IMG/VR virus record: IMGVR_UViG_3300036971_000130
Direction: 5' to 3' (one strand)
Length of the DNA: 64,000 nucleotides
Source of the DNA: a virus
Lineage: Duplodnaviria; Caudoviricetes
Positions within the stretch are counted from its first letter, which is position 1; every line of letters begins with the position of its first letter. The notes beneath the pieces are model-generated. The model saw nothing but the letters and a program-made list of their open reading frames with translations, did no database searches and was not told where the DNA came from. The translations under genes and the position numbers were made by a program. Shown here in pieces: positions 15,291 through 56,428 of the stretch.

Positions 15291-16544
15291 TCACGAGAAC
15301 ACGGCCAGGTAGGTCAGCTTGATCCGGTCGAGGTTCCACTGGATCATCTCGTTGTTCATCACACCGCAGGTCCCGCCCTTGACGTTGATCGAGTCGTACT
15401 TCGCTCGCTCCCTTTCCGAGTGGGCGAGCATCCGATCCCGAGGCCGCATCTCCCGTCCCATCGCCACATCGGCAACGAACATCGAGACCTCGTTGGAGCC
15501 TCGGCCACCGCCGCCCCAGTACCCGTCGGAGTAGTTGAGCGACTTCGTCGACTGGTCCGAGAAGTACACCCCGTCACCGAACATGCGTCCAGCGATGTGG
15601 ATACCGTCGCTGTTCGTCGGGACGATGAGGCCACGGTGCATCAGCGAGATCAGGTTGCCGGTTCCCGTTCCATGCCAGAGGCGCTTGACGTTGCCGACTC
15701 GGTCCGATTCGACCTTGATCCGAGCGGCCAGCGCAGCGTCAGCTTCGGTGATCTCGTAGAGGGCAACGAGCTTCCGCCCGGAACTGGTGTGGATCGAGTT
15801 CACTGTCGAGGTGAACATCTCCTGGATCGACCGGAACTCCGGAGACGACGGGTCGACAGTCGTCAGCGAGTAGCGGAAGATCCGCTTCTTCGGCTCATCG
15901 TCGTTCGCTGCTGCTGCGGCGGCGATCGCAACAGCGCCGTCGAGAGCGTCCAGGAACTCGACCTGCTTCGCCAGGAAGGTCTGCTCGACGAAGTTCTTCT
16001 CCCACCCTCGGGTCCTCCCGATGTCCTGCGGGACGATGGTCATGTAGCGGCCGATGTCGGCGTTCGTCGGGGCCTTCGCCTTGCTGATCTTGTCCAGCAG
16101 CGCCCTCGCTTCGAGGATGGAAGCGGCACCGACAGGACCGAGTGCGGTCTCCACCGAGCCGCTCTTGGCGACGGTGATCTTGCCGCCGGAAGCGTCCTCG
16201 ATCATGTGTCGGTTGGCGTCACACCAAGAGTTGATCCGACGGATCAGATCGGCGTTCTGGGTCGTCGGAAGTTGCGTCACGGCGTAGTCCGAGAGGACAG
16301 AGTTCGAGGTGATCTTGGAGCCGGAGGAACCGTCTCCGGTCGAATCGAAGACCTGGTACCCCTTCTTCTTCTTCGAGGCGATCGCACGCTCGTAACCGGA
16401 GCGTCCGGTGCCCTCCGAAGACGACTGTCCGTTGGCTCCGACACGCCCCCATCGCTTCTTCACGATGTTGCCGTCGAGGGTCACTTCGTAGAACTTGTTG
16501 TTGTTGGAGTTCGGGTCCGAGAGGACCAGCATGGTGGTTTCCAT
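15291..16544 (-). CDS. WGR-domain poly(ADP-ribose) polymerase-like protein
   Basis: NNNKFY...WGRVG; LWHGT, GRMFGDGVYFSD..TKSLNYS, NNE (H-Y-E triad). Confidence 0.9.
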   Translation of the reverse strand: METTMLVLSDPNSNNNKFYEVTLDGNIVKKRWGRVGANGQSSSEGTGRSGYERAIASKKKKGYQVFDSTGDGSSGSKITSNSVLSDYAVTQLPTTQNADLIRRINSWCDANRHMIEDASGGKITVAKSGSVETALGPVGAASILEARALLDKISKAKAPTNADIGRYMTIVPQDIGRTRGWEKNFVEQTFLAKQVEFLDALDGAVAIAAAAAANDDEPKKRIFRYSLTTVDPSSPEFRSIQEMFTSTVNSIHTSSGRKLVALYEITEADAALAARIKVESDRVGNVKRLWHGTGTGNLISLMHRGLIVPTNSDGIHIAGRMFGDGVYFSDQSTKSLNYSDGYWGGGGRGSNEVSMFVADVAMGREMRPRDRMLAHSERERAKYDSINVKGGTCGVMNNEMIQWNLDRIKLTYLAVFS

Positions 16545-16663
16545 ACCCACCATTATGGGTGTGACCACTGACAGTTTCGGGCGGTCACCCAAAGCCGTCA
16601 GTGGTCACTTTCTGAACGTCGTTCAGGTTTCAGTTGGGACTTTCCGAACGGTGATTCGGAAAG

Positions 16664-31006: not shown

Positions 31007-31218
31007 GCATTCCCAACCCATGATGGCGTTGGACCATGGATCTAGAACCCGCCTGATCGACATGGCTGCGTGATGGTGCTACGGTCCCATCTCCACGACA
31101 GGACGGAACCGACGATGGACCTGATGGATTACTTCATGGCTGCTCAGAACTCATCTGATGATGAGGGGTTCACGATCGTCGAAGGAGACGACGAGGGGTC
31201 GTCTGAGGGCACGCCCGA

Positions 31219-33288
31219 GTGAAAGCCCACTCTCCCAACCAGTTCGGTGAGTGGCATGACCTCACCGAACACCTCGAAGCGGTAGCGGTGTCAGCCGCAG
31301 CCTTCGGTGCTCCGTTCGGCCTCGGTGATGTGGCGTTCTGGGCTGGTCTCTGGCATGACGTGGGGAAGACCTCATGCGTCTTCCAGCAGTACCTCAGGGA
31401 CACGGTCACCCACGGCGATGCGAAAGCCCGTCTCATGCATCCGAAGCGGGGACACAAGGATCTCGGCACCTCGATGGCGTTCCGCAACTCGAAGATGTTC
31501 GAGGAAGGCGGAGATGTCTCGGTTGCGCTCTCGATCGAAGCTCACCACGGTGGCCTACCTGACTGGCCGGACTTCCATGGCCGCAAAGGTGCCAAGCTCA
31601 TCGAGATGTCGAAGGACGAGGCCCTGTTCGAGACGGTGAAGTCGGTCTTGTCGAAGCCGTCACCGACTTCCACGGTCCCGTTCCCGAAGCTTCAGTCGAG
31701 GATGGACTTCGAGATGATGGTCAGGTTCCTGACCTCGTGTCTCGTGGACGCCGACTACCTGGACACGTCCAGGCACTTCACGCCTCATCTCGCTGCCATG
31801 TCGAGCTACAAGGGCGACATCTCCCAGACGATCGGGCGCATTCGGCAGTTCGATGACCCGACGAGGCCGGTGGACATCCAGCGTGCGCTCTGGCGGGAAC
31901 GGGCGATCGGATCTGCCCGCCACTCCGCCAAGGGGATCTTCCGTCTGACTGGGCCGACTGGGATCGGCAAGACCGAAGGTGGCTTCGCTGCGGTTCTCGC
32001 TCACGCCGAGTCCCACAAGATGGACCGAGTCATCATCACGGTGCCGTACATGGCGATCACCGAGCAGACCGCTGACACGTTGCGCTCGATCTACGGCGAC
32101 GAGAACATCCTCGAACACCACTCGGGGGTGAGCGAGGCGAACGACACGCTACGTCGACGACTCACGTCCGAGCGTTGGGATGCCCCGGTCGTGGTGACCA
32201 CCACCGTGCAGTTGTTCGAGTCCCTGTTCTCCTGCGAGATCCCGAAGATCCGGAAGCTTCACCATCTCGCCAACAGCGTGATCGTGGTCGACGAACCCCA
32301 GACGATGCCGCCGCACCTGCTTCGCCAGATCCTCGATTCGCTGCGCTGGTTGGTCGAGCACGCCGGGTCCACTGTCGTCTTCCAGACAGCGACGCAGCCT
32401 TCGTTCGGCCTGCTCGATCCGGCGTTCGAGAACGTCCCGGAGTGGGGCACGAACGACATCCCGTCAACGATGCGCCGAGTCGAGTGGAACTTCCAGGACT
32501 GGTGGGATGACGACAAGATCGTCCGTGAGGTCGAGAAGCACGACCAGGTGCTCTGTATCGTGAACCAGGTTGTTGCCGCTCAACGGCTGGCGAAGTCGGT
32601 TCCTGGGGCCATGTGCCTGACGACCTCGAACCATCAACAGGACCGCCGGAAGACGATCGCTGAGATCAACCGTCGTCTCGCTGCCGGGGAGCCGTGCACG
32701 GTGTTCTCGACGCAGCTTGTCGAGGCTGGTGTCGACTTCGACTTCCCGGTCCTGTTCCGTTCGATGGCTCCGCTCACGTCGTTGACGCAGGCCGCTGGTC
32801 GCTGCAACCGTCACGGCAAGATCGAGCGTGGAACGGTGACGGTCTTCGAGCACATCGGGTGTCACGGTCCGTCTTCTCTGGTCGGAGCCACGGAACTGAC
32901 CAGGCAGATGATCAAGGCGGACAAGGACTTCGATCCGTTGGACACGAAGATCATCGACTTGTGGTACAGCCGCCTCTGGTCCTACGTGAACGCCGACGAA
33001 CATCCGATCGACAGGTCACGGAAGGCGCTGACGTACCGGGTGACCGACGATCTGTTCCGGATGATCGACGAGACCGTTCAGGTGGTCATCGACACTCCGG
33101 AGAGTCGGTCCGCCATGGACAGTGGTGACCACCGCAAGGTAGCTTCACTGACGGTGGCGATCCCACCGAAGATCGCTGCACAAGCAGCAAACCTCGGCCT
33201 TCTCATCGAAGAAGGCGACCATACGATCTGGGGTGGGAAGTACGACCCCGTGATCGGTCTGGTGAGACCTGAGACGGAAGACACATGA
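31219..33288 (+). CDS. cas3: CRISPR-associated nuclease/helicase Cas3 (type I-C)
   Basis: HD domain (EHL, HDVGK, HHGG, LVDADYLDT) + SF2 helicase (PTGIGKT, DEPQ, TQLVEAGVD, QAAGRCNR). Confidence 0.95.
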   Translation: MKAHSPNQFGEWHDLTEHLEAVAVSAAAFGAPFGLGDVAFWAGLWHDVGKTSCVFQQYLRDTVTHGDAKARLMHPKRGHKDLGTSMAFRNSKMFEEGGDVSVALSIEAHHGGLPDWPDFHGRKGAKLIEMSKDEALFETVKSVLSKPSPTSTVPFPKLQSRMDFEMMVRFLTSCLVDADYLDTSRHFTPHLAAMSSYKGDISQTIGRIRQFDDPTRPVDIQRALWRERAIGSARHSAKGIFRLTGPTGIGKTEGGFAAVLAHAESHKMDRVIITVPYMAITEQTADTLRSIYGDENILEHHSGVSEANDTLRRRLTSERWDAPVVVTTTVQLFESLFSCEIPKIRKLHHLANSVIVVDEPQTMPPHLLRQILDSLRWLVEHAGSTVVFQTATQPSFGLLDPAFENVPEWGTNDIPSTMRRVEWNFQDWWDDDKIVREVEKHDQVLCIVNQVVAAQRLAKSVPGAMCLTTSNHQQDRRKTIAEINRRLAAGEPCTVFSTQLVEAGVDFDFPVLFRSMAPLTSLTQAAGRCNRHGKIERGTVTVFEHIGCHGPSSLVGATELTRQMIKADKDFDPLDTKIIDLWYSRLWSYVNADEHPIDRSRKALTYRVTDDLFRMIDETVQVVIDTPESRSAMDSGDHRKVASLTVAIPPKIAAQAANLGLLIEEGDHTIWGGKYDPVIGLVRPETEDT

Positions 33289-33905
33289 CCATTGACGTTC
33301 GCATGAGTTCTGAGTACGCATGCTTCTCACGACCGGAGTTCCCGGCGGAGAAGACCTCGTATCCGATCATCACCCCTCCCGCTGCTGTCGGAGCGATCTC
33401 GGCGGTCTTCTGGAAGCCCGAGTTCATGTGGAAGGTCCGTTCCGTGAAGCTTCTGGCCGAGCCGGAATGGATGACCTACCGGATCAACGGCGTGAAGGAG
33501 AAGCTCCCGGTCGGGCGCATCACCGACACCTTCGGGCAGATCGACGCCATCGCCAGTCAGACCCAGATCGGCCATCTCGTACTGGTGAAGCCAGCGTACG
33601 AGGTGACCTTCGACATCACCCTGAAGCCGTGGGCGACGAAGTCGAAGTTGGCGTACTTCGATCAGGCGCAACGACGACTCGATCGAGGGGCCTTCTTCAA
33701 GCCTCCGTACCTCGGGATGCGTGAGCACATGGCGGAGGTCGAACCTGGCACCGGTGAGGCCCCGGTCGCCTTCACCTTGCCGGTTGGTCCGATGGTCCAC
33801 TCGTACGAGTTCGACGCTGACGGGAACGTCTCGAAGACCCGCTTCTTCGATGCTAAGATCATCAACGGCGTGATGGATGTTCCGGATCGTGGTACCGCCC
33901 AGTGA
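33285..33905 (+). CDS. cas5: type I-C Cas5 (Cas5d)
   Basis: ACFSRPE...SY.IITP.AA.G...AVFWKP; PYLG.RE. Confidence 0.93.
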   Translation: MTIDVRMSSEYACFSRPEFPAEKTSYPIITPPAAVGAISAVFWKPEFMWKVRSVKLLAEPEWMTYRINGVKEKLPVGRITDTFGQIDAIASQTQIGHLVLVKPAYEVTFDITLKPWATKSKLAYFDQAQRRLDRGAFFKPPYLGMREHMAEVEPGTGEAPVAFTLPVGPMVHSYEFDADGNVSKTRFFDAKIINGVMDVPDRGTAQ

Positions 33906-35527
33906 CGATCTACCGTGACCTCGTGGCGTGGACCCACACCGACGAAGGCAGAGAAGTCGCAGGTGAGACCCAGATCGGGTTCAAGCTGAAGACCCTCTCC
34001 GGGATCATCCACATCGAGTCCGCTCCTGATGGGGCGATCAAGGGCACTCCGACGATGACCTTCATCGACCCCGATGAGAAGGTCAGGGCGCTGATGCCTC
34101 ACGTCAAGAGGTCCGTGAACGTGGAGCCCGCTCTCGGTGACGACACCGTCGACTACCTGTTCGGTGGCTTCGTGCCGATGCCGAACGACTCTGAGGCGAA
34201 GATCAGCCGAGGGGCGGAACGGGCCGAGAAGCTTCACGAAGCTGCCGTAGCCCTCGCCCGCCGGTGGTCCGACGAGACCGACTCACCGATCGCCCGTACC
34301 GTCGTCGACTTCATGGAGGGCGACTGGGGGTTCGATCTCACGAACACCAAGAGCCGCTCGAACCCGTACCGACTGGTCGTGAACGGCGAAGTCGTGACCG
34401 AGACGGCCGAGTTCCGGACCTGGTGGTCCGACTACATGAGCCGGGATCTCGACACCGGGATCTGCTGGGCGTGTGACCGTGAAGCGAAGCTCGTGAGGCT
34501 GCTCACCCAGGTGACGATCCCTGGTGCCAGCACGACCGGCACGACCCTGTCGACGATCGACAAGACCTACGCCGAATCCTGGGGTCGCAAGGCCGCAGCC
34601 GACATCTGCGTCGACTGCGACAGCAGGATCAGCAAGGCGATCACCGGTCTGGCCCGAAGCAGAGACCACCAGCGCATCGTCGGTGGTCGAGTCATCCTCT
34701 GGTGGTCGATGAACCACGTCACCGAGTCGTTGATCCCGAACCTGATCTCCGGCGACCTCAGCTTCGGTGATCTCGTGAAGATGGCTGAGAACGGCCTCGG
34801 CGGGAACACGGACTTGGACGCACTACATGTCCTGGTCCTGAAGCCGAACGCTGGTCGCACCTCGATCTACGGGTATCAGACGATCACGTTCGAGCAGATG
34901 GTCGACAGGTTCGCTGAATGGTCTGAGATCGCCACTGTCGACGAGGTCAACTACCCGCTGTGGAAGATCGCCAAAGCGATCCCGACCAACGGCACGTCAG
35001 ATCCTCTCCCTGGCCGGTTCGAGGCCGAGATGTTGACGTGGATCATGTCCATGTCGAAGGGGTTCGAGATCAACCCTGCCGTCATCCGGCGCATCCAGAA
35101 CTTCGACCCGAAGCCTCTGACGGGACCGGAGATCATCCTCCTGAACGCCTACCTGAAGGACACCATGAACGAGCAAGCCGAGAAGTGGGGCGAGATGTTC
35201 TTCCTCTACGCCCAAGCTTCCTTCCGGGCGAACGGATCTGACCGCACGATCCTGAGCCGGTATCGCATGGCGATGAGGAACCCTCGTCGAGCGATGGTGG
35301 TGCTCGAACCTGGGTTCCAGCGGAATCTTCAGACGGCTCTCAGCCGAGGACGACCGTCCACGTTCCTCGCCAAGCGGATGGCGGAACTGTCGATCGACCT
35401 AGGTGAACTCCCATCGAACGCCGATGAGCGTTTCCAGTCAGCGTTCGTCCTCGGATTCCACTCCGCCAAGCACGCCCACTTCCAGTACATCCAGCAGAAG
35501 GACTCCACTGATGACCTCCCCGAATGA
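33902..35527 (+). CDS. cas8c: type I-C large subunit Cas8c/Csd1
   Basis: Position between cas5 and cas7; L.D..DY, CxxC pairs, ESWG, L.PNAGR, C-terminal F.LGF. Confidence 0.85.
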   Translation: MTIYRDLVAWTHTDEGREVAGETQIGFKLKTLSGIIHIESAPDGAIKGTPTMTFIDPDEKVRALMPHVKRSVNVEPALGDDTVDYLFGGFVPMPNDSEAKISRGAERAEKLHEAAVALARRWSDETDSPIARTVVDFMEGDWGFDLTNTKSRSNPYRLVVNGEVVTETAEFRTWWSDYMSRDLDTGICWACDREAKLVRLLTQVTIPGASTTGTTLSTIDKTYAESWGRKAAADICVDCDSRISKAITGLARSRDHQRIVGGRVILWWSMNHVTESLIPNLISGDLSFGDLVKMAENGLGGNTDLDALHVLVLKPNAGRTSIYGYQTITFEQMVDRFAEWSEIATVDEVNYPLWKIAKAIPTNGTSDPLPGRFEAEMLTWIMSMSKGFEINPAVIRRIQNFDPKPLTGPEIILLNAYLKDTMNEQAEKWGEMFFLYAQASFRANGSDRTILSRYRMAMRNPRRAMVVLEPGFQRNLQTALSRGRPSTFLAKRMAELSIDLGELPSNADERFQSAFVLGFHSAKHAHFQYIQQKDSTDDLPE

Positions 35528-36362
35528 CCCGACTGTCCGCCACGACTTCACCTTGCTGGTGGAGGCCGTCGACGCCAACCCGAACGGTGACCCGGATCTC
35601 GACAACGAGCCCCGCCGTGATCCGACGACCGGCCACGGGCTCATCACCGACGTGTCCGTGAAGCGTCGCCTCCGTGACTTCGTCCTCGTCGCCAAGGACG
35701 GTGACGACAGGTTCGACATCCAGGTGAAGCGAGGGCAGGCCCTCAACACGATCTCCGAGGAAGCTCGGGCAGCGATCCCGGAGAAGGCCGAGGACCGGGC
35801 CGAGAAGATCGTCGAGTGGCTTCAGAACCGCTACTTCGACATCCGGATGTTCGGCGCTGTCCTCGGAACCGGCAACGCCAAGCCGAGGCTCCCGAGCCTC
35901 ACCGGCCCTGTCCAGATCGGCATGGGGCGCTCCGTCGACCCGATCGAGACCTACGACATCTGCATCACCCGTCTGGTCGTCACCGACGAGAAGGACAAGG
36001 AGAAGGAGCAGACGATGGGCCGCAAGTGGGTGACCCCGTACGGTCTCTACGTCGTCCACGGCACCTACTCCGGCATCCTCGGTGCGAAGTCGGGTGTCAC
36101 CGAAGAAGACCTCGACTGCATGTGGCAGGGTCTCTCCGGTCCCATGTTCGACCTGGCAGCGTCGACCTCGAAGTTCGGTGTCTCGACTCGTGGCCTCATC
36201 GTCCACTCGCACGAGACCCCGATGGGCAACGCTTCCCGTGCCGCTGTCCAGGCGACCACGAAGATCACCCCGAACCACGATGGCGCTCCCCGATCCTTCG
36301 AGGACTACACCATCACCTTCGAAGACATGCCGTCGAAGGTGACCCGGACGATTCTCGTCTGA
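35511..36362 (+). CDS. cas7: type I-C Cas7/Csd2
   Basis: NPNGDPD.DNEPR, TDVS.KR..RD, FDIRMFGAV, GPVQ, TMGRK. Confidence 0.95.
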   Translation: MTSPNDPTVRHDFTLLVEAVDANPNGDPDLDNEPRRDPTTGHGLITDVSVKRRLRDFVLVAKDGDDRFDIQVKRGQALNTISEEARAAIPEKAEDRAEKIVEWLQNRYFDIRMFGAVLGTGNAKPRLPSLTGPVQIGMGRSVDPIETYDICITRLVVTDEKDKEKEQTMGRKWVTPYGLYVVHGTYSGILGAKSGVTEEDLDCMWQGLSGPMFDLAASTSKFGVSTRGLIVHSHETPMGNASRAAVQATTKITPNHDGAPRSFEDYTITFEDMPSKVTRTILV

Positions 36363-36514
36363 GTTGCGAGAGGTCCGATGACGACCCGACCGTTCACCGC
36401 ACCACCCCAGATCACAGACCTGCTGGTGAGGCAGATGATCAGTGAATCAGGGACCTCTCGCAACAACGGTCGTTCCCGCAGGTCAGAGATGACCGAAACC
36501 AGGAACGGTCGAAA
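36363..36514 (+). promoter_or_regulatory. CRISPR leader-like region
   Basis: 14-bp inverted repeat 36363-36376/36451-36464 and GCAGGTCAG motif between cas7 and first repeat. Confidence 0.55.
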
Positions 36515-36774
36515 CGCCGTCTACGGACGGCGAGGATTTCAACGGACGGCGAGGATCGGAACATCATCACGTCGATGCGACCGAGTCGCATTGCGCCGTC
36601 ACCAGACGGCGAGAATCGCAACAAGCCATCTGCCTCCGCAAGAGGTCCCGTCCCTACCGGGGCGGGAGAATTGGAACTACCCTGCCGAATCCACGTCGTC
36701 ACCAGGCGACGAGAATCGAAACATGGACCATGTCAACCCACTGTCCGCCGTCTCCGGGCGGCGAGGATCGCAAC
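36515..36774 (+). CRISPR. degenerate type I-C mini-array: 5 hairpin repeats + 1 half repeat, short spacers
   Basis: Units of 7-8 bp hairpin + 11-nt AG(G/A)AT(C/T)NNAAC tail at 36515, 36594, 36647, 36694, 36746; half repeat 36544-36562. Confidence 0.8.
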
Positions 36775-36962
36775 ACCGACGGCAGGGACCACGAGAAGGA
36801 GACGATCGGCAGCCGGGACATCCCCGGTTACCGCCCAGTCAAGGTGGCCGACGACGAGGACGAGGACGAGGTGCTGGACGCCATCGGCCCCATCAGCATC
36901 CACGACCTGATCAACCAGTTCTTCGGCTGACGCCCGGTCAGATCCTCGATCTGACGTTTCGC

Positions 36963-36998
36963 ACGACGACCCCGGACGCTATGTTCGGGGTCGTCGTC
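36963..36998 (+). terminator. hairpin closing the CRISPR transcript
   Basis: acgacgaccccggac/gttcggggtcgtcgt. Confidence 0.55.
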
Positions 36999-37112
36999 GT
37001 TCACCACCCATGATGGGTGTGCACCATTCGCATCAACCAAGAGAGCCCGAAATCCAGACATAGCGCCCAGGCGGGGACATACCACCCATGATGGGTGGAG
37101 GAAAGCATCACC

Positions 37113-38236: not shown

Positions 38237-38431
38237 ATGGCTGACAAGGAACAGAAGCAGCAGGAGGTCCAAGACTTCCTGGAAGGCAACGGTCGCTACA
38301 TCGTCACCGGGTTCGCCATCCTGATCGCCTTGGGTCTCGCCTGGACGGTCATCGACACAGGGATCGTCCTGTTCGTCGTGCTCGTGGCGATCGGAGCGAT
38401 GGCCTGGTACGTGTGGGGGACCAAGGAATGA
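38237..38431 (+). CDS. small 2-TM membrane protein
   Basis: Hydrophobic, coupled to NERD gene. Confidence 0.6.
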   Translation: MADKEQKQQEVQDFLEGNGRYIVTGFAILIALGLAWTVIDTGIVLFVVLVAIGAMAWYVWGTKE

Positions 38432-38982
38432 CGATGAACGTGCTCGGCAAGGTCGCCGGGTCCCTCAACGACAAGTCCGCTCGGAAGTGGGCGAAGAACG
38501 ACAAGGTCATCGAGGCTGGTGCCCGAGGCGAAGCCCGTACTGCCGATGCGCTCCTGAACGGGCGTGACGGAACCATCATGCACGACATGAGGATTCCTGG
38601 TGAGCGAGCCAACATCGACCACATCGTCGTGTCCGGCAACAAGGTCTGGCTCATCGACTCGAAGTGGTGGAAGGGCGGTCGGTACATGACCGTCTTCGGG
38701 AAGACCTACCGTGGCTTCACCCGTGTCCCCCACACCGAGAAGGACACGATGGCTCGGGCCTACGAGAAGGTCGAACGCCACCTGCACGAGAAGGGGGTCG
38801 ACTTCGACTTGCAGACGCCGATCATCGTCGTCTGGTCGCATGAGCCTCTGAAGCTCGGTCTCGCCAAGATCCCCGGTGCTCGCCTCATCGCAGGCGGCAG
38901 CTTCCGTGGTCAGGCCAGGAAGCTGTTCAAGGCCGACGCCAACAACGAGATCATCGACGCCCTGAGGGAACTCGTGATCTGA
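38428..38982 (+). CDS. NERD nuclease-related domain protein
   Basis: GARGE, HD, NIDHIVV, IDSK.W.G. Confidence 0.82.
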   Translation: MTMNVLGKVAGSLNDKSARKWAKNDKVIEAGARGEARTADALLNGRDGTIMHDMRIPGERANIDHIVVSGNKVWLIDSKWWKGGRYMTVFGKTYRGFTRVPHTEKDTMARAYEKVERHLHEKGVDFDLQTPIIVVWSHEPLKLGLAKIPGARLIAGGSFRGQARKLFKADANNEIIDALRELVI

Positions 38983-41900
38983 TGGCACAGCCATTTCAGC
39001 AACCGTCACATGCACCTCTGATCATCGGCGTCTCCGCTCTGATCGGGTGCGGCTTCGCCTACCTCGGGTTCCCAGCCTTCGCCATCATCTGGCTGGGGTT
39101 CGTGGTCGCCGCCTACTTGGAACCACCGGTGATCCTCACCGGGAAGAAAGACCAGTACGGCTCTCCGACCCCACTCCACGATGGAGAGTCGAAGCGGCTC
39201 AGATCGTTTGCGTTCTGGCGTGAACTTCGCACGTCCCTTATTGTGCCGAATGCATCTTGGCTCCCAGGATGGCCGATCCTGGGTTCGTTCATCGGGGCTG
39301 TTGTAGCGGCACTCATCGGCTGGTCCTTGCCGGTGATGTTCGTTCAGCTTCAGCCGGTGAACGCTGTGTGCGGCTTCATCGTCATCTCGGCGGTCATGTC
39401 CGCTCGACGCAAGACGATGGCCGACGGCGACGTGTACGGAGGCGCTCGCCTCAACACCCTCGATGACTACCTGAAGGAGAATCGGCCGATCGCCGTGATC
39501 TCCGTGCTGCTGGGGATCGTCGTTGCAGTCCTCGTTGCAACGAAGGTGCCGCAGTGGCAGGAGACCTCCGCCAAGCAGGTGTTGACGGATCAGAAGACCG
39601 GTGAGGTTGTTCCTCACTCGGCTACGACCATGCCTCCGCCGCAGACGACCGAGGCGGGATCGCCACCGACGATCGAGTACGTGATCCCGACGGTCGACAT
39701 CACTCCGGACCCGAAAGCGACGGCAACGAAGAACCCTGACCTCATCGTCTCCGGTCTCGTCGATTACGGCACTCGATCCATCATCCCACTGACCATCGCA
39801 GGTTTCTTCATCGGGTTCTTCGCTCTGACCGCCCGGCCGTGGTCGAAGCGTTCGATCGAGCACTGGAAGGAGGTTGTCGCTGCCCGAGCGGAGTGGCAGC
39901 CTCGTTGGCGTGCCGCCGGGCTGAAGGACGACACCTTCCCGTGGCTGGTCGAACGTGAGCGGGTCGGCCAGTTCCAGGTGGACACGTTCATCGCTGATCC
40001 ATCGCTGGCCGCTCAGACGATCATCGACACGAAGGCGAACGCCATCAGGCCGACGATCGGCGCTGGCATGAACATGGTGGCCTTGTCGACCCCCGATGCT
40101 CGCAACGGTGAGCCGGTTCCCGGCACCGTGCATCTCCGTCGGTTCCAGATCGTCGTGTGGGACGGTGACCTCACGGACTTCTCGGACCCGGACGCCGACA
40201 TGGACGAGTTGACGCTCTCCGCCCGGATCGGGTTCGCTGAAGCGTGTGATGCTTCGGGGATGCTTCGCTCGGAGATCGTCGAGATCACCCCGATGCACGA
40301 CCTGTCCCCGGTCCCCTCGGACGAGGACGAAGACGACGAAGGCGATGACCTTCCGGCGATTCCCGACATCACCCCGCAGAAGAACTACGGTGCCGTCTGG
40401 GCTGTCCAAACCACGATGGGTGGCGCAACCCGGACGTTCCGGGAGAACTCCCGTGGGGCGATCGCAGGTCGCTTCGGAGTCGACTGCATCATCGACGACC
40501 GTCGCCCCGACCTGAACGGCGTCCTGTTCCTCGGGACCCTGCTCGAAGACGGCGTCACCGGACGTGACGTGCCCGAGCGGTTCACGATGCCGTCGCCTGA
40601 CCGTGAGCCCAACTGGCCGTCCATGTTCCGTCACATCGACATGGAGGACCACTACCGGACGACCTGGCAGCAGTTCCTCCCGCAGCCCGAGATGTACCCC
40701 ACCCCGCACTGGGACTTGGAGATGGACCGGGAGATCATCACGAAGAAGGGCAAGTCTGTCGTGCACGGCCTGGCCTTCGTCTGTCGCCAGGGTGTCCCGC
40801 CGAACACCTTCACGAACGCCAAGACGGAGAAGAACCTCGCCACCACCTGGGAGGCTCCGCTCATGGTCAACATGAACTCCTTCCGGCACAACATCGGCAC
40901 CGGCCAGTCAGCCAAGCGCCAGGACATCGTCAGCCACGCTCAGGCTATCTTCCTGTCCTGGTCGACCGATCACATCCCGTCCTCGATCGTCAACCTCCCG
41001 TTGCAGGTCCAGGGGAACTCTCCGGGCAGCACGTCGGTGAAGTACAGCGCCTCGGTGCCTTCGGAGCCGATCATCTGGGTGATCCAGCACTACGTGAACA
41101 AGGCGTTCGACCAGGTGAAGAAGCCTCGTCCGGACGTGATGACGGCGAAGTGCCTGACCCGCAAGGACTCGCCGGAAGCTCTCTGGGAGATCGAACTGAA
41201 GGTCGTCGGTGGCGAGACCATCGAGACCCTCCGTTCCGCCACTGAGCGTCTCCGAGTAGCTTTCCAGGTGCCGTGGTGCCTGGTGACCACCTGGGAGAGC
41301 GGTGTCACGATCTTCGTCGGAGGCGACCCGTTCAACCCGAAGACGAACCTGGTGAACCCTGACCGTGACGCTGCCCGCCTGAAGGGCTACTCGTGGGAGC
41401 AGGCGTTCATCTCCTGTGGCATCTCCGGCTCCGACGGTGTCATGCCGAAGTTGCAGGACTACAAGCTCCTACCGTCGAACAACGACATCGAGGTACTGAA
41501 GTTCTCGCTGCCGCCCGGCATTTCCCCGACGACGTTCAAGGAGAAGAAGGACAAGCTCTCCACAGCGAAGGGGTACACCTACATCGAGATCGTAGACTCG
41601 GCTGACCCGAAGGTTCTCGAAATGATGGTCTGCGCCGAAGATCCGACTCCGACGGCTGTGATGATCGGCCCCGCTGAACTCGACATCATCGAGAACTCGT
41701 CCGGCGTCCCGTTCGCCACGAACATCCTCGGTGAGGTCGTCGCCTACGACCCGAAGGAATCGCCTCACCTGCTCCTGGCTGGTTCCTCAGGAGGTGGAAA
41801 AAGCGTCTTGGCTCAGGTGTTGCTCTACGGCGCTCTGAAGCGTGGCTGGGACATCTACGTGATGGACCCGATGAAGGGCGCTGCCGACTTCAGCTTCACG

Positions 41901-43103
41901 AAGGACTACGCCCTCGGGTTCTGCACCACGTACTTCGAGGCAGCGGGCACGCTCATGCACATCTACGAGAACGTGGTTCGTGCTCGTGTGGCCTTGAACG
42001 GCCAGTACGGCGCTTCGTCGTTCATGGATCTGCCGGAGGAAGTCCGCCCGAACCGAGTGCTCATCTTCATCGACGAGTTCACGTCGCTCCTTCAGATGGA
42101 TGCAGTCCCGAAGGGCGATGACCCGGACACGATCCAGGAAGCCGAGATCATGTCCGAGCGCAACGAGGCTCGTCGGGCCATCTCGTCGATGGTCGGCAAG
42201 ATCGTTCGTGAAGCTCGATCCGCTGGTGTCACCATCGCCATCGGTGCTCAGGCGATGAAGTCCGACTTCCTGAAGACGCTCCCTGGTGGTGCTGGCATGA
42301 AGGACTCGATGGCTCGTATCCTCATGGGTAACGCAAGCCACGGCGAACGTGCGTCGGCGCTCCGGATGGGCCACAAGGCTCAGGCGATGCCGACAGCGAT
42401 CATCCCGAAGGGCCGAGGCTGGTGGGAGTCTTCCACGGCTGGTTCAGCTTCGGTCATCCAGGTGTGGTTCGCCACGCAGAGCACGTACGCTGCCGCTCTC
42501 GAAGGCATGCCTCTCGCTGACCCGGATCGGATCATCGACCAGGAGCAGTTCTCCGAGCCGGTCGTCCACTCGTTCATGCAAGAGGCCGAGGAAGGCACCT
42601 CGTTCACTGATGGCGTCTTCGTCGAGGACGATGACGAGGTCATCGAACTCGGTTCGTTCCAGGGGTTCACGATCCCTGACGCCCCGGATGACGAGCGTGT
42701 CGCTCCGTTCGTGATCGAGACCGTCGACGACGATGACGAAGGGTTCTCGTCCTTCGATGACCTCCCAGAGATCGTCGTCGACGAACCTGTCCGTCCGGCG
42801 GTGGTGACGGTCGGGTTCGCCGGTGAGGCTGGTGACGTGCAGATCCAGTCGATCGACGAGTTCCTGGCGTGGCTGGACACGGCTGTCGGTTCTGACGTGG
42901 TCGTGAACGTCGCCTCGGACCAGGCGGATGAACTGGTTGGCACGGTGGAGGCGATCTTCGGCCCTGGCATGGTCAGCTTCGTCGTGACCGAACCGGAACC
43001 AGAGCCCGAACCAGAACCGGTACGTCGAGTCTCGCCGTCCAGAATGACGTGGGGAGCCGAGATCGGCAACGGTGGGTTCGATGATGACGACTTCCTGTCC
43101 TGA
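38982..43103 (+). CDS. FtsK/SpoIIIE-family membrane DNA translocase ATPase
   Basis: N-terminal TMs; PHLLLAGSSGGGKS, IFIDEF, REARSAGV...Q. Confidence 0.88.
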   Translation: MAQPFQQPSHAPLIIGVSALIGCGFAYLGFPAFAIIWLGFVVAAYLEPPVILTGKKDQYGSPTPLHDGESKRLRSFAFWRELRTSLIVPNASWLPGWPILGSFIGAVVAALIGWSLPVMFVQLQPVNAVCGFIVISAVMSARRKTMADGDVYGGARLNTLDDYLKENRPIAVISVLLGIVVAVLVATKVPQWQETSAKQVLTDQKTGEVVPHSATTMPPPQTTEAGSPPTIEYVIPTVDITPDPKATATKNPDLIVSGLVDYGTRSIIPLTIAGFFIGFFALTARPWSKRSIEHWKEVVAARAEWQPRWRAAGLKDDTFPWLVERERVGQFQVDTFIADPSLAAQTIIDTKANAIRPTIGAGMNMVALSTPDARNGEPVPGTVHLRRFQIVVWDGDLTDFSDPDADMDELTLSARIGFAEACDASGMLRSEIVEITPMHDLSPVPSDEDEDDEGDDLPAIPDITPQKNYGAVWAVQTTMGGATRTFRENSRGAIAGRFGVDCIIDDRRPDLNGVLFLGTLLEDGVTGRDVPERFTMPSPDREPNWPSMFRHIDMEDHYRTTWQQFLPQPEMYPTPHWDLEMDREIITKKGKSVVHGLAFVCRQGVPPNTFTNAKTEKNLATTWEAPLMVNMNSFRHNIGTGQSAKRQDIVSHAQAIFLSWSTDHIPSSIVNLPLQVQGNSPGSTSVKYSASVPSEPIIWVIQHYVNKAFDQVKKPRPDVMTAKCLTRKDSPEALWEIELKVVGGETIETLRSATERLRVAFQVPWCLVTTWESGVTIFVGGDPFNPKTNLVNPDRDAARLKGYSWEQAFISCGISGSDGVMPKLQDYKLLPSNNDIEVLKFSLPPGISPTTFKEKKDKLSTAKGYTYIEIVDSADPKVLEMMVCAEDPTPTAVMIGPAELDIIENSSGVPFATNILGEVVAYDPKESPHLLLAGSSGGGKSVLAQVLLYGALKRGWDIYVMDPMKGAADFSFTKDYALGFCTTYFEAAGTLMHIYENVVRARVALNGQYGASSFMDLPEEVRPNRVLIFIDEFTSLLQMDAVPKGDDPDTIQEAEIMSERNEARRAISSMVGKIVREARSAGVTIAIGAQAMKSDFLKTLPGGAGMKDSMARILMGNASHGERASALRMGHKAQAMPTAIIPKGRGWWESSTAGSASVIQVWFATQSTYAAALEGMPLADPDRIIDQEQFSEPVVHSFMQEAEEGTSFTDGVFVEDDDEVIELGSFQGFTIPDAPDDERVAPFVIETVDDDDEGFSSFDDLPEIVVDEPVRPAVVTVGFAGEAGDVQIQSIDEFLAWLDTAVGSDVVVNVASDQADELVGTVEAIFGPGMVSFVVTEPEPEPEPEPVRRVSPSRMTWGAEIGNGGFDDDDFLS

Positions 43104-47977: not shown

Positions 47978-48051
47978 CCCTGGTTAGCTCAGAGGTAGAG
48001 CGCCGCCATGTCAGGCGGAGGTCAGTGTATCGAAAGCACTACTGGGGGCCA
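47978..48051 (+). tRNA. atypical tRNA, Asp(GTC)-like with 6-nt anticodon loop
   Basis: D arm canonical, loop atgtca, T loop ATCGAAA, GCCA end. Confidence 0.55.
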
Positions 48052-55308: not shown

Positions 55309-55734
55309 TTGGCGTTCAAGGTGATCGCCGGTGTGTTCGGGGTGACCTGCCTGCTCGTTCTCGTCGGCTTGTTCGTGTACGGGTTCGCTGCGTCGATGAC
55401 GACTGGTTCTGACCGTGTCCTGGTCACGGCGAAGGGCGAGAGGTGCTTCGTCGACTACCGGTATCGGACGCCCCGTGACGACTGTGAGTACACGATCATC
55501 ACACGGAGTGGCGATGTCTTCATCGTGAACGGTCCGAAGTCGTCGTCTCCGGCTGGCCGGGCTGACTACGACGACTTCGTGGAGTGCTCGATCTACGAGA
55601 TCACCTACCGTGGGTTCGAGTCGAGCCGTGAGATCACGTCAGCCTCCCTCGTCGAGTCGGACAAGGCTTGGACGCCGACCTGCGCTGAGCCGGAGGTCAT
55701 CTCCCTGACGGCTCTCGCCACGGCGTTCGCCTGA
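55309..55734 (+). CDS. membrane-anchored hypothetical protein (start uncertain)
   Basis: N-terminal TM helix. Confidence 0.6.
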   Translation: MAFKVIAGVFGVTCLLVLVGLFVYGFAASMTTGSDRVLVTAKGERCFVDYRYRTPRDDCEYTIITRSGDVFIVNGPKSSSPAGRADYDDFVECSIYEITYRGFESSREITSASLVESDKAWTPTCAEPEVISLTALATAFA

Positions 55735-55759
55735 AACATGTGTGGTAGCATGTAGGGCC

Positions 55760-56428
55760 ATGAAGCGCCTTGCAGCAACCATCACCGTCGCCGCCGCAGT
55801 TCTCCTGTCGGCGTGCCAGACGGGCACCGCACCCCTCGACAACCCGACCGGGTCGAAGGCTTCTCTTGCTGCAACACCGAGCGAGAAGAAGGCTTCGGCC
55901 CGGTCGTTCATCGCTCAGACCAAGGTCGGAGCGACCTCGTCCGGCAACGACTACGTTCGATCGAAGTTCGGTCCGTCCTGGCCGTCGATCAACGGCTGCG
56001 ACATGAGGAACGGGACCCTCACCCGTGACCTCACCGATGTGACTTACAACGACTCGAAGAAGTGCATCGTCAACACCGGCGTCCTCAACGACCCGTACTC
56101 GGGCGAGAAGATCAACTTCCAGCGGGGAGCCTCCACCTCGTCGAAGGTCCAGATCGACCACGTCATCCCGCTCTCCTACGCATGGAAGATGGGCGCACGA
56201 GGATGGACCGACACCCAGCGTCGGAACTTCGCCAACGACCCGCTGAACCTGATGGCGGTCAAGGGCTCCGTGAACGGATCGAAGTCCGACAGCGGCCCTG
56301 CTGAGTGGATGCCTCCGAAGCCCTCGATCCACTGCTCCTATAGCGTCAGGTTCGCTCAGGTCGCCCAGAAGTACAACCTCCCGATCCAGACCGTGGACCG
56401 TGCGAAGATGGACGCTTCCTGCCGGTAG
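55760..56428 (+). CDS. secreted lipoprotein HNH nuclease (DUF1524-type)
   Basis: LSAC lipobox; DPYSG, QIDHVIPL, FAND.LNL, N..K.D. Confidence 0.85.
   Translation: MKRLAATITVAAAVLLSACQTGTAPLDNPTGSKASLAATPSEKKASARSFIAQTKVGATSSGNDYVRSKFGPSWPSINGCDMRNGTLTRDLTDVTYNDSKKCIVNTGVLNDPYSGEKINFQRGASTSSKVQIDHVIPLSYAWKMGARGWTDTQRRNFANDPLNLMAVKGSVNGSKSDSGPAEWMPPKPSIHCSYSVRFAQVAQKYNLPIQTVDRAKMDASCR

Follow-up and report, generated by a model that had tools for sequence, protein, structure and literature searches.

What does a phage do with a complete type I-C effector whose accompanying array consists of five repeats that all differ in sequence, separated by short intervals? The question is raised by the window analysed here, a 64-kb stretch of phage DNA. 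An original prediction had placed a degenerate mini-array beside a type I-C Cascade with Cas3, and had taken its structure to be under selection while adaptation was frozen, with the intervals serving as fixed guides for transcriptional repression or as Cascade decoys. The explanation that we prefer, with a probability of about 0.45, is a functional guide array that lacks adaptation and supplies the type I-C Cascade and Cas3 encoded by the phage itself.

Host element and population variation

The element is jumbo phage-like. The contig recorded for its Cas7 measures 233.5 kb, and the window contains 36 tRNA genes, phage-type families and a PARP-like protein. The same DNA was met solely in wastewater metagenomes, and the host of the phage is probably actinobacterial. 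No relatives of the phage were retrieved from phage and plasmid collections by megablast, by its Cas7 or by its 1373-aa protein.

Wherever it is covered, on three independent contigs and in four further runs, the array is identical to the letter, bar a 19-nt unit in the R1/R1b stretch described below. This unit is present in two copies in the window, on contig L001 and in run X4, and in three copies on contig L002 and in run X3. The first unit of the array is unstable, and its guide would shift by 19 nt between variants. No diverged relative was found for comparing guide conservation, the nearest Cas7 being 49% identical and located in canonical loci.

The cas operon and adaptation genes

The claim of a type I-C Cascade and Cas3 beside the array was borne out by Pfam, which identifies cas3, cas5d, cas8c and cas7 directly upstream:

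31115-31222, + strand: small ORF of 35 aa, a gene call on Logan contig L001; its end overlaps the cas3 start codon
31219-33288, + strand: cas3, 689 aa (Pfam Cas3-like_C_2, DEAD and Cas3_HD), HD nuclease and SF2 helicase
33285-33905, + strand: cas5d, 206 aa (Pfam Cas_Cas5d, PF09704), the expected pre-crRNA endonuclease
33902-35527, + strand: cas8c/csd1, 541 aa (Pfam Cas_Csd1, PF09709, E 1e-34)
35511-36362, + strand: cas7/csd2, 283 aa as called (Pfam Cas_Cas7, PF05107, E 7e-71), database protein P0001
37095-37916, + strand: PD-(D/E)XK nuclease (Pfam PDDEXK_1, E 2e-20; Cas_Cas4 marginal), with its own promoter-motif pair

Cas5d, Cas8c and Cas7 are encoded on consecutive ORFs without a Cas6, as expected for a type I-C effector, and Cas3 combines the HD nuclease and SF2 helicase of I-C Cas3 proteins. 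When Cas3 was aligned over its full length with three I-C relatives, the HD, Walker A, DExx and motif VI columns were invariant, and the histidines and aspartates of the HD domain are kept. Its best PDB relative is the I-C Cas3 of 8g9u (E 5e-74). Judged by these motifs, Cas3 is apparently active. Cas5d aligned well with the I-C 'pre-crRNA processing endonuclease' of 8g9s/8g9t (E 1e-23), and Cas8c had no sequence-level match in PDB.

Adaptation genes are missing from the window. Neither cas1 nor cas2 nor cas4 was detected in the 64-kb window, so that the locus is not a complete adaptive I-C system. Searching the whole window by tblastn with the Cas4, Cas1 and Cas2 of two relatives returned only noise (E above 0.02), and gene calls on an independent contig placed no cas4, cas1 or cas2 between cas7 and the following genes. 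The PD-(D/E)XK nuclease was considered as a candidate I-C Cas4 and rejected, BLASTP against a relative's Cas4 showing no similarity.

Among 5.8 billion clusters, the closest Cas7 proteins are 44-49% identical. The contigs fetched for these relatives carry canonical loci with cas4-cas1-cas2, and the array of one of them is regular, with 37-nt repeats and a period of 71-74 nt. Compared with those loci, the Cas3, Cas5 and Cas8c of the phage are each shorter.

Organization of the array

Starting 152 nt past the cas7 stop codon on the + strand, five type I-C-style repeats can be read at 36515-36774 of the window. Five unlike hairpin repeats with 11-nt tails and intervals of 31, 24, 16 and 23 nt had been predicted, and the sequence reads as described:

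36515-36543, + strand: repeat R1; stem 7 bp, loop 4 nt, tail 11 nt
36544-36562, + strand: half repeat R1b, 19 nt; 3' arm and tail, with the 5' arm missing
36563-36593, + strand: interval S1, 31 nt; the final 21 nt form a 9-bp hairpin (-11 kcal/mol)
36594-36622, + strand: repeat R2; full hairpin and tail
36623-36646, + strand: guide-like interval S2, 24 nt
36647-36677, + strand: repeat R3; a different G/C stem of 8-9 bp, with the same end point before the tail
36678-36693, + strand: guide-like interval S3, 16 nt
36694-36722, + strand: repeat R4; bears the sole compensatory pair (C-G to U-A)
36723-36745, + strand: guide-like interval S4, 23 nt; contains the ORF66 ATG at 36730
36746-36774, + strand: repeat R5; the nearest to bacterial I-C repeats, lying within ORF66 codons 6-15

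In each unit, a stem of 7 bp, or of 8-9 bp in the case of R3, encloses a loop of 4 nt and is followed by a single-stranded 11-nt tail. The tails begin with AG and end with AAC, and seven of their 11 positions are invariant over all five full repeats. The 11-nt 3' tail of I-C repeats reportedly becomes the 5' handle, as work by Nam and by Garside in 2012 is said to show. All five repeats thus have the hairpin of the 7-bp class and the 11-nt 3' tail of I-C arrays, and the degenerate repeats around short pseudo-spacers resemble those of CreA/CreR/Cracr loci. Near-identical repeats, a regular period and spacers of about 33-37 nt are all lacking.

The 31-nt interval has the predicted length, but only when counted from R1b: it follows a half repeat, and its last 21 nt are a hairpin. 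R1b itself is a member of the 19-nt tandem unit and has no stable fold when taken alone. Because the first unit is unstable in copy number and S1 is mostly hairpin, only the units with intervals of 24, 16 and 23 nt count as well-formed in our view. The 23-nt interval does contain TGTCAA, the complement of a TTGACA box that had been pointed out, but a single 6-mer is not promoter evidence.

It had also been anticipated that standard finders would probably miss this array. Tandem Repeats Finder gave no report on it, because the repeat periods are 79, 53, 47 and 52 nt, and the array can escape a periodicity-based CRISPR finder.

Folding, specificity and family of the repeats

Folded alone, each repeat adopts its hairpin at -10.4 to -18.1 kcal/mol, an energy equalled by only 0 to 9 of 200 shuffles. 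The tail motif, with two mismatches at most, occurs 19 times in the 64-kb window, and a stem of 7-8 bp stands in front of only four of these copies, namely R2-R5; the scan could not include R1, with three mismatches in its tail. A covariance model trained on R1, R2, R4 and R5 was run over both strands of the 64 kb. These four repeats scored 43-47 bits, R3 12.6 bits and R1b 12.5 bits, and nothing else exceeded 17 bits. The model thus detected no second array in the window. The best Rfam hits, on the + strand and below threshold, were CRISPR-DR29 and CRISPR-DR9.

The stems were said to be preserved through compensatory or G-U changes. Such covariation is weaker than was said. Of the seven stem pairs compared among R1, R2, R4 and R5, five are invariant, a sixth shows a one-sided change (U-A to U-G), and the seventh has both bases replaced in R4 (C-G to U-A). 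This level of covariation was equalled by 130 of 500 shuffles. The stem of R3 is wholly different and lies in another register, yet it stops exactly at the tail. What stands is that all five units keep hairpin and tail, and that the sequence between them is short and irregular. The claim of a structure under selection relies on the one compensatory pair and on R3 and is tentative at best, the sampled copies being identical.

The exact repeat pattern had no copy in 185,579 species genomes. In the same genomes, a looser pattern retrieved type I-C arrays of Amycolatopsis and Micromonospora, plus chance matches; in IMG/VR, the repeat pattern gave a single match, inside a gene, that we judged to be due to chance. 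The repeats of the Amycolatopsis and Micromonospora arrays share their final 12 nt with those of the phage, in agreement with the actinobacterial I-C tail originally proposed. R5 matches the Amycolatopsis repeat at 25 of 29 positions, the Amycolatopsis stem lying in another register. On these sequence matches, the array derives from type I-C, and its tail is that of an actinobacterial I-C repeat family.

Leader and probable transcription unit

The window contains a promoter-like motif 34 times, where 1.3 occurrences would be expected. Typically, TTGGAC comes first, followed after about 17 nt by the motif and, 4 nt further on, by an ATG. The elements relevant to the cas locus are as follows:

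31016-31026, + strand: copy of the promoter-like motif upstream of the cas operon
36363-36512, + strand: structured leader, with a 102-nt stem-loop and a second hairpin at about 36467-36512
36963-36997, + strand: terminator-like hairpin (inverted repeat) with 15-nt arms, which closes the unit

The 102-nt stem-loop of the leader is closed by a perfect 14-bp stem, an inverted repeat pairing 36363-36376 with 36451-36464. The minimum free energy (MFE) fold of 36363-36800 has a z of -4.7, the intergenic region being hairpin-rich throughout. No sigma-70-like promoter was found in the leader. Since the motif occurs at 31016, is absent from 31027-37005 and reappears only at 37006 and 37084, and since the hairpin lies at 36963-36997, we infer that the cas genes, leader, array and ORF66 form one transcription unit. 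Tail-like remnants are also present in the leader.

ORF66

The last unit of the array overlaps an open reading frame:

36730-36930, + strand: ORF66, an acidic orphan of 66 aa, a gene call on two independent contigs

ORF66 contains 16 D+E and 6 K+R residues. Its sole in-frame start is the ATG inside the 23-nt interval S4, and R5 forms its codons 6-15. After R5, 49 of 51 codons end in G or C, as in true genes of this phage, while the corresponding fraction in the leader and array is 0.57-0.63. No relatives were found among 1.84 billion representatives, no family was assigned, and the Atlas structure model has a pLDDT of 0.36 with no confident fold. ORF66 is a probable protein-coding gene overlapping the last array unit. 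If Cas5d cuts at R4 and R5, it would separate ORF66 from its start codon.

This overlap and the copy-number variation of the first unit go beyond the original prediction, as does the recognition that arrays of this kind have already been described (CreA/CreR, Cracr and huge-phage CRISPR).

Search for targets

Targets of the intervals were sought in the 64-kb window, the fetched related I-C loci, IMG/VR, JGI metagenome contigs, GenBank phages and PLSDB. TTC is the PAM of type I-C (PMC7049708). These collections yielded no protospacer for any of the guides, whether or not a TTC PAM was required.

Apart from themselves, S1-S4 had no matches in the window better than those reached by random window k-mers. 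Guide matches anchored at the 5' end occurred at the frequency seen with shuffles, none of them with a TTC PAM, and two lay near promoter motifs (P of about 0.09). Self-targeting within the window was accordingly rejected, its matches being at the level of random k-mers and shuffles. The TTC-anchored search for partial matches that the original prediction had proposed gave no TTC-flanked match in the window or in the fetched I-C loci, and no PAM-proximal partial match of at least 9 nt beside a TTC near a promoter was detected in either. With every sixth base left free, the guides had no match in IMG/VR (S1, S2 and S4) or in the JGI metagenome contigs (S1 and S4); the latter collection evidently does not include this phage, because its own array was not returned. 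Comparison of 36363-36800 with phages and plasmids by blastn gave noise (E of 0.4 or more).

Two individual candidates were rejected. S4 matches the HNH/GmrSD gene at 56153 at 18 of 23 positions, four of the five mismatches falling on third codon positions, as if it were a spacer taken from a homologue of that gene; 22% of random 23-mers equal this match. S2 is complementary to the leader at 36417-36437 (17 of 21 positions), which is ordinary among the 28 similar inverted repeats in 1.3 kb. Nor is this complementarity in register with the nearest TTC, and it is absent from the MFE fold.

Proposed function of the array

We infer processing, complex size and outcome at the target as follows. A single transcript would run from the motif at 31016 to the hairpin at 36963-36997 and carry the cas operon, leader, mini-array and ORF66. 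Cas5d would cleave it at the 3' base of the repeat hairpins, with cuts predicted after 36532, 36611, 36666, 36711 and 36763. The products would be three well-formed short crRNAs, in which a guide of 24, 16 or 23 nt lies between an 11-nt handle and a hairpin, together with one irregular first unit. Cascades nucleated on such guides would contain fewer Cas7 subunits than canonical ones, and they may bind PAM-flanked DNA beyond the window, in the host, in a rival phage or in the remaining phage genome. The unlike repeats would keep what the proteins require while lowering recombination between repeats, in a genome that could not rebuild its array.

What such complexes would do at a target depends on guide length. 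The statement that short guides support binding without Cas3 cleavage holds for type I-F1, in which a full-length R-loop is required for cleavage and a short-spacer Cascade with fewer Cas7 assembles (PMC7296934), but not for type I-E, in which spacers of over 20 nt still interfere and Cascades with fewer Cas7 also assemble (PMC5159557). Viral crRNA-like RNAs of type I-F likewise support assembly of a Cascade with fewer Cas7 (bioRxiv 10.1101/2024.10.29.618823). We found no type I-C data in the literature on short guides and Cas3 cleavage. Because Cas3 is retained, it would probably still be recruited on the 23-24-nt guides, and we tentatively favour, at somewhat less than even odds, Cas3-dependent attack for these and binding at most for the 16-nt guide; the latter and the hairpin-occluded first unit would probably bind only, or be inert.

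A working array is supported by the intact effector, which under selection would require guides, and no array other than this one was detected in the 64 kb. The constancy of its sequence across samples, apart from the 19-nt unit, points the same way. Weighing against it are the protospacers that were not found, the variable first unit without a proper hairpin before its handle, and the overlap of the last unit with a probable gene.

The proposal of repression guides or Cascade decoys received no support from the target searches, which returned nothing for the guides irrespective of a TTC PAM; the same holds for attack. A purely repressive system is also argued against because Cas3 keeps its HD and helicase motifs. 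The related possibility that the units, like CreA/CreR/Cracr RNAs, act by binding alone, as regulators or anti-CRISPRs, is unlikely on balance, though it accounts for several features. Their pseudo-spacers would direct an I-C Cascade, that of the phage or one hijacked from the host, to promoters without cleavage; alternatively, the RNAs would soak up host Cas proteins in the manner of Racr, with ORF66 as a partner anti-CRISPR. Guides of 16-24 nt fit the reported sizes (17-21 nt for viral I-F, 23-27 nt for bacterial and 21-24 nt for I-E Cracr), and the viral units, often stacked and with degenerate repeats, have targets in Actinomycetota and form nine arrays of type I-C among others (bioRxiv 10.1101/2024.10.29.618823). 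On a Bifidobacterium element, an Acr is transcribed together with a mimic of an I-C repeat (PMC10651486). Here, ORF66 directly follows and overlaps the array, and the repeats are like the host-type I-C repeats of actinobacteria. The PAM-proximal, TTC-flanked match of at least 9 nt near a promoter is nevertheless missing from the window and the fetched I-C loci. Moreover, the published cases use host Cas proteins, whereas this phage encodes an entire effector with an apparently active Cas3, and ORF66 as an Acr is a guess about a protein with no relatives and no confident fold.

Decay offers another explanation, and one that we hold to be quite unlikely: a canonical I-C locus would have been captured, would have lost cas4-cas1-cas2 and most of its array, and would now be eroding by slippage and deletion, with Cascade, if used at all, loaded from another phage array or from compatible host arrays. 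The irregular periods and shortened intervals agree with this, as do the half repeat, the 19-nt unit present in two or three copies across the population, the tail-like leader remnants, an interval that is itself a hairpin, the weak formal covariation and the lack of targets found. For huge phages with host-like repeats, a sharing of Cas proteins and arrays with the hosts has been proposed (PMC7162821). Had decay been random, however, some hairpin or tail among the five repeats should be broken; every one is intact and stable, and it is the intervals that shrank instead. The cas genes are intact as well, there is no second array in the 64 kb, and the 185,579 species genomes hold no exact copy of the repeat. 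A functional array is more likely than a relic, because the effector is intact, Cas3 is apparently active and the processing features are all kept.

That the hairpins are not CRISPR-derived but are, for example, terminators or protein-binding sites in an intergenic region rich in hairpins throughout is highly improbable, given that the 11-nt tail and stem are placed as in I-C repeats, that R5 agrees with a repeat from an Amycolatopsis array in 25 of 29 positions, and that the units directly follow I-C cas genes and have CRISPR-DR families as their best Rfam hits.

Returning to a working array, one elaboration of it assigns a role to ORF66. The locus would be a device for a genome without spacer acquisition, in which unlike repeats and a guide-sized Cascade with fewer Cas7 are combined with an S4-R5 unit acting as a switch for ORF66. 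Cas5d processing and ORF66 translation would be mutually exclusive, so that ORF66 would be made only when the Cas5d/Cascade of the phage is absent or blocked. We regard this combination as a long shot; under it, ORF66 would perhaps be an inhibitor of host I-C systems or a safeguard protein.

Relation to known systems

Effector-only loci with compact arrays are common in huge phages (PMC7162821) and include an I-C-like variant, and crRNA-like arrays with short pseudo-spacers have already been described too. What is unusual here is the combination: a full I-C Cascade and Cas3 on a jumbo phage, repeats that are all different, three guides 16-24 nt long and, at the end of the array, a unit overlapping a gene.

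The effector-only CRISPR systems of huge phages (Al-Shayeb et al. 2020; PMC7162821) resemble this locus in being carried by phages of more than 200 kb with many tRNAs, in the absence of Cas1, Cas2 and Cas4, in their very small arrays (a median of six repeats) and in the existence of an I-C-like variant with Cas5d as processor. In that variant, as presented there, another helicase replaces Cas3, whereas here the HD and helicase motifs of Cas3 are intact. The available text of that study does not describe unlike repeats or 16-24-nt spacers for these systems, and some of their spacers had targets, whereas none were found here.

Should the short guides be loaded, the locus would be a natural I-C system in which the guides are fixed, measure 16-24 nt and are flanked by repeats that all differ. 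It would then bear on the smallest Cascade that still acts, on R-loop length as a checkpoint for Cas3 in type I-C as in I-F1, and on the design of compact, recombination-stable multiplex arrays; phage crRNA-like RNAs would extend from borrowed host Cas proteins to an effector supplied by the phage. Arrays of this kind may be under-counted in large phages, being overlooked by periodicity-based CRISPR finders.

The mini-arrays borne by viruses (Medvedeva et al. 2019, as cited in 10.1101/2023.03.03.530964) are also small viral arrays without adaptation genes. In the account given by the citing work, they differ in having repeats identical to those of the host, normal spacers and matches to related viruses, none of which applies here.

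Viral Cracr RNAs (Liu et al., bioRxiv 10.1101/2024.10.29.618823) and CreA/CreR RNAs (bioRxiv 10.1101/2023.03.10.532045; Shmakov et al. 10.1101/2023.03.03.530964) share with this array the degenerate repeats with a preserved processing hairpin, pseudo-spacers of 17-27 nt, array-like stacking and smaller complexes with fewer Cas7-type subunits, and their predicted cases include type I-C and Actinomycetota. What defines them is a PAM-proximal match to the promoter of cas or creT, whereas none was detected for the present guides. The viral RNAs borrow the host Cas proteins, whereas this phage supplies the whole effector and Cas3, and two or three intervals are reported for Cracr arrays, as against four here.

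Racr RNAs, such as RacrIC1 beside AcrIC5 (Camara-Wilpert et al. 2023; PMC10651486), are single repeats located away from cas genes, whereas here five repeats and their intervals follow a full cas operon. Their likeness to this locus lies in the I-C repeat mimics on a mobile element and the co-transcribed gene for a small protein, and the R1/R1b stretch is likewise repeat-only sequence.

Repeat variation, the first repeat and the leader

In bacterial type I-C arrays of Amycolatopsis (L035, 7600-8000, and L027), the repeats differ from one another while keeping the hairpin and the GAGGATCGCAAC tail. Stem variation is therefore not peculiar to the phage array. The spacers of these Amycolatopsis arrays are of normal length, about 35 nt. 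At the first repeat of the phage array, a 19-nt tandem unit (window 36534-36562) corresponds to the 3' arm and tail of that repeat. Its copy number differs among wastewater samples, being either two or three, with the extra copy found in the independent contig L002 and in sequencing run X3, and it is the sole polymorphism across the 1.4 kb compared.

The gap between cas7 and the array (window 36363-36512) contains two strong RNA hairpins. The first spans 102 nt and has at its base a perfect 14-bp stem, beginning directly after the cas7 stop codon. Its 3' arm terminates in CTCGCAAC, which resembles the repeat tail. Possible roles of this hairpin are partial termination, RNA processing or stabilisation.

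The cas operon and its upstream ORF

Compared with the nearest bacterial I-C loci (contigs L004-L008), the phage has shorter versions of Cas3 (689 aa), Cas5d (206 aa) and Cas8c (541 aa), by 30-90 residues each, and a Cas7 of equal length. No PDB match to phage Cas8c was retrieved at the sequence level. One short ORF lies immediately 5' of cas3:

31115-31222, + strand, 35-codon ORF

Its stop codon overlaps the GTG start of cas3 (GTGA), an arrangement that may reflect translational coupling or a leader peptide of the cas operon.

A recurrent promoter-like motif

The 11-nt motif ACCCATGATGG occurs 34 times in the window, against 1.3 copies expected, nearly always on the + strand. TTGGAC is often found about 17 nt upstream of it and an ATG start codon 4 nt downstream. 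The motif resembles a phage-specific promoter driving genes that are leaderless or nearly so. Example sites and a palindromic variant are as follows:

26423, 31016, 37006, 37084, 57671, 60950 and 62362, ACCCATGATGG
37003-37019, 37081-37097, 48953 and 52029, palindromic variant of the motif

Accessory and tRNA genes

Other genes annotated in the window include:

15291-16604, - strand, protein with WGR and PARP catalytic domains
38413-43103, + strand, NERD-domain protein and, after it, a 1373-aa protein bearing an FtsK/SpoIIIE-like P-loop
53579-55228, + strand, Ro60/TROVE protein with a vWA domain, adjoining the tRNA cluster
55709-56428, + strand, GmrSD_C/HNH nuclease

Among GenBank phages, no relatives of the 1373-aa protein were found. 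The 36 tRNA genes of the window lie between 45465 and 57647 and together serve most amino acids; in one of the tRNA calls (47978-48051) the anticodon loop assignment is odd, comprising two bases.
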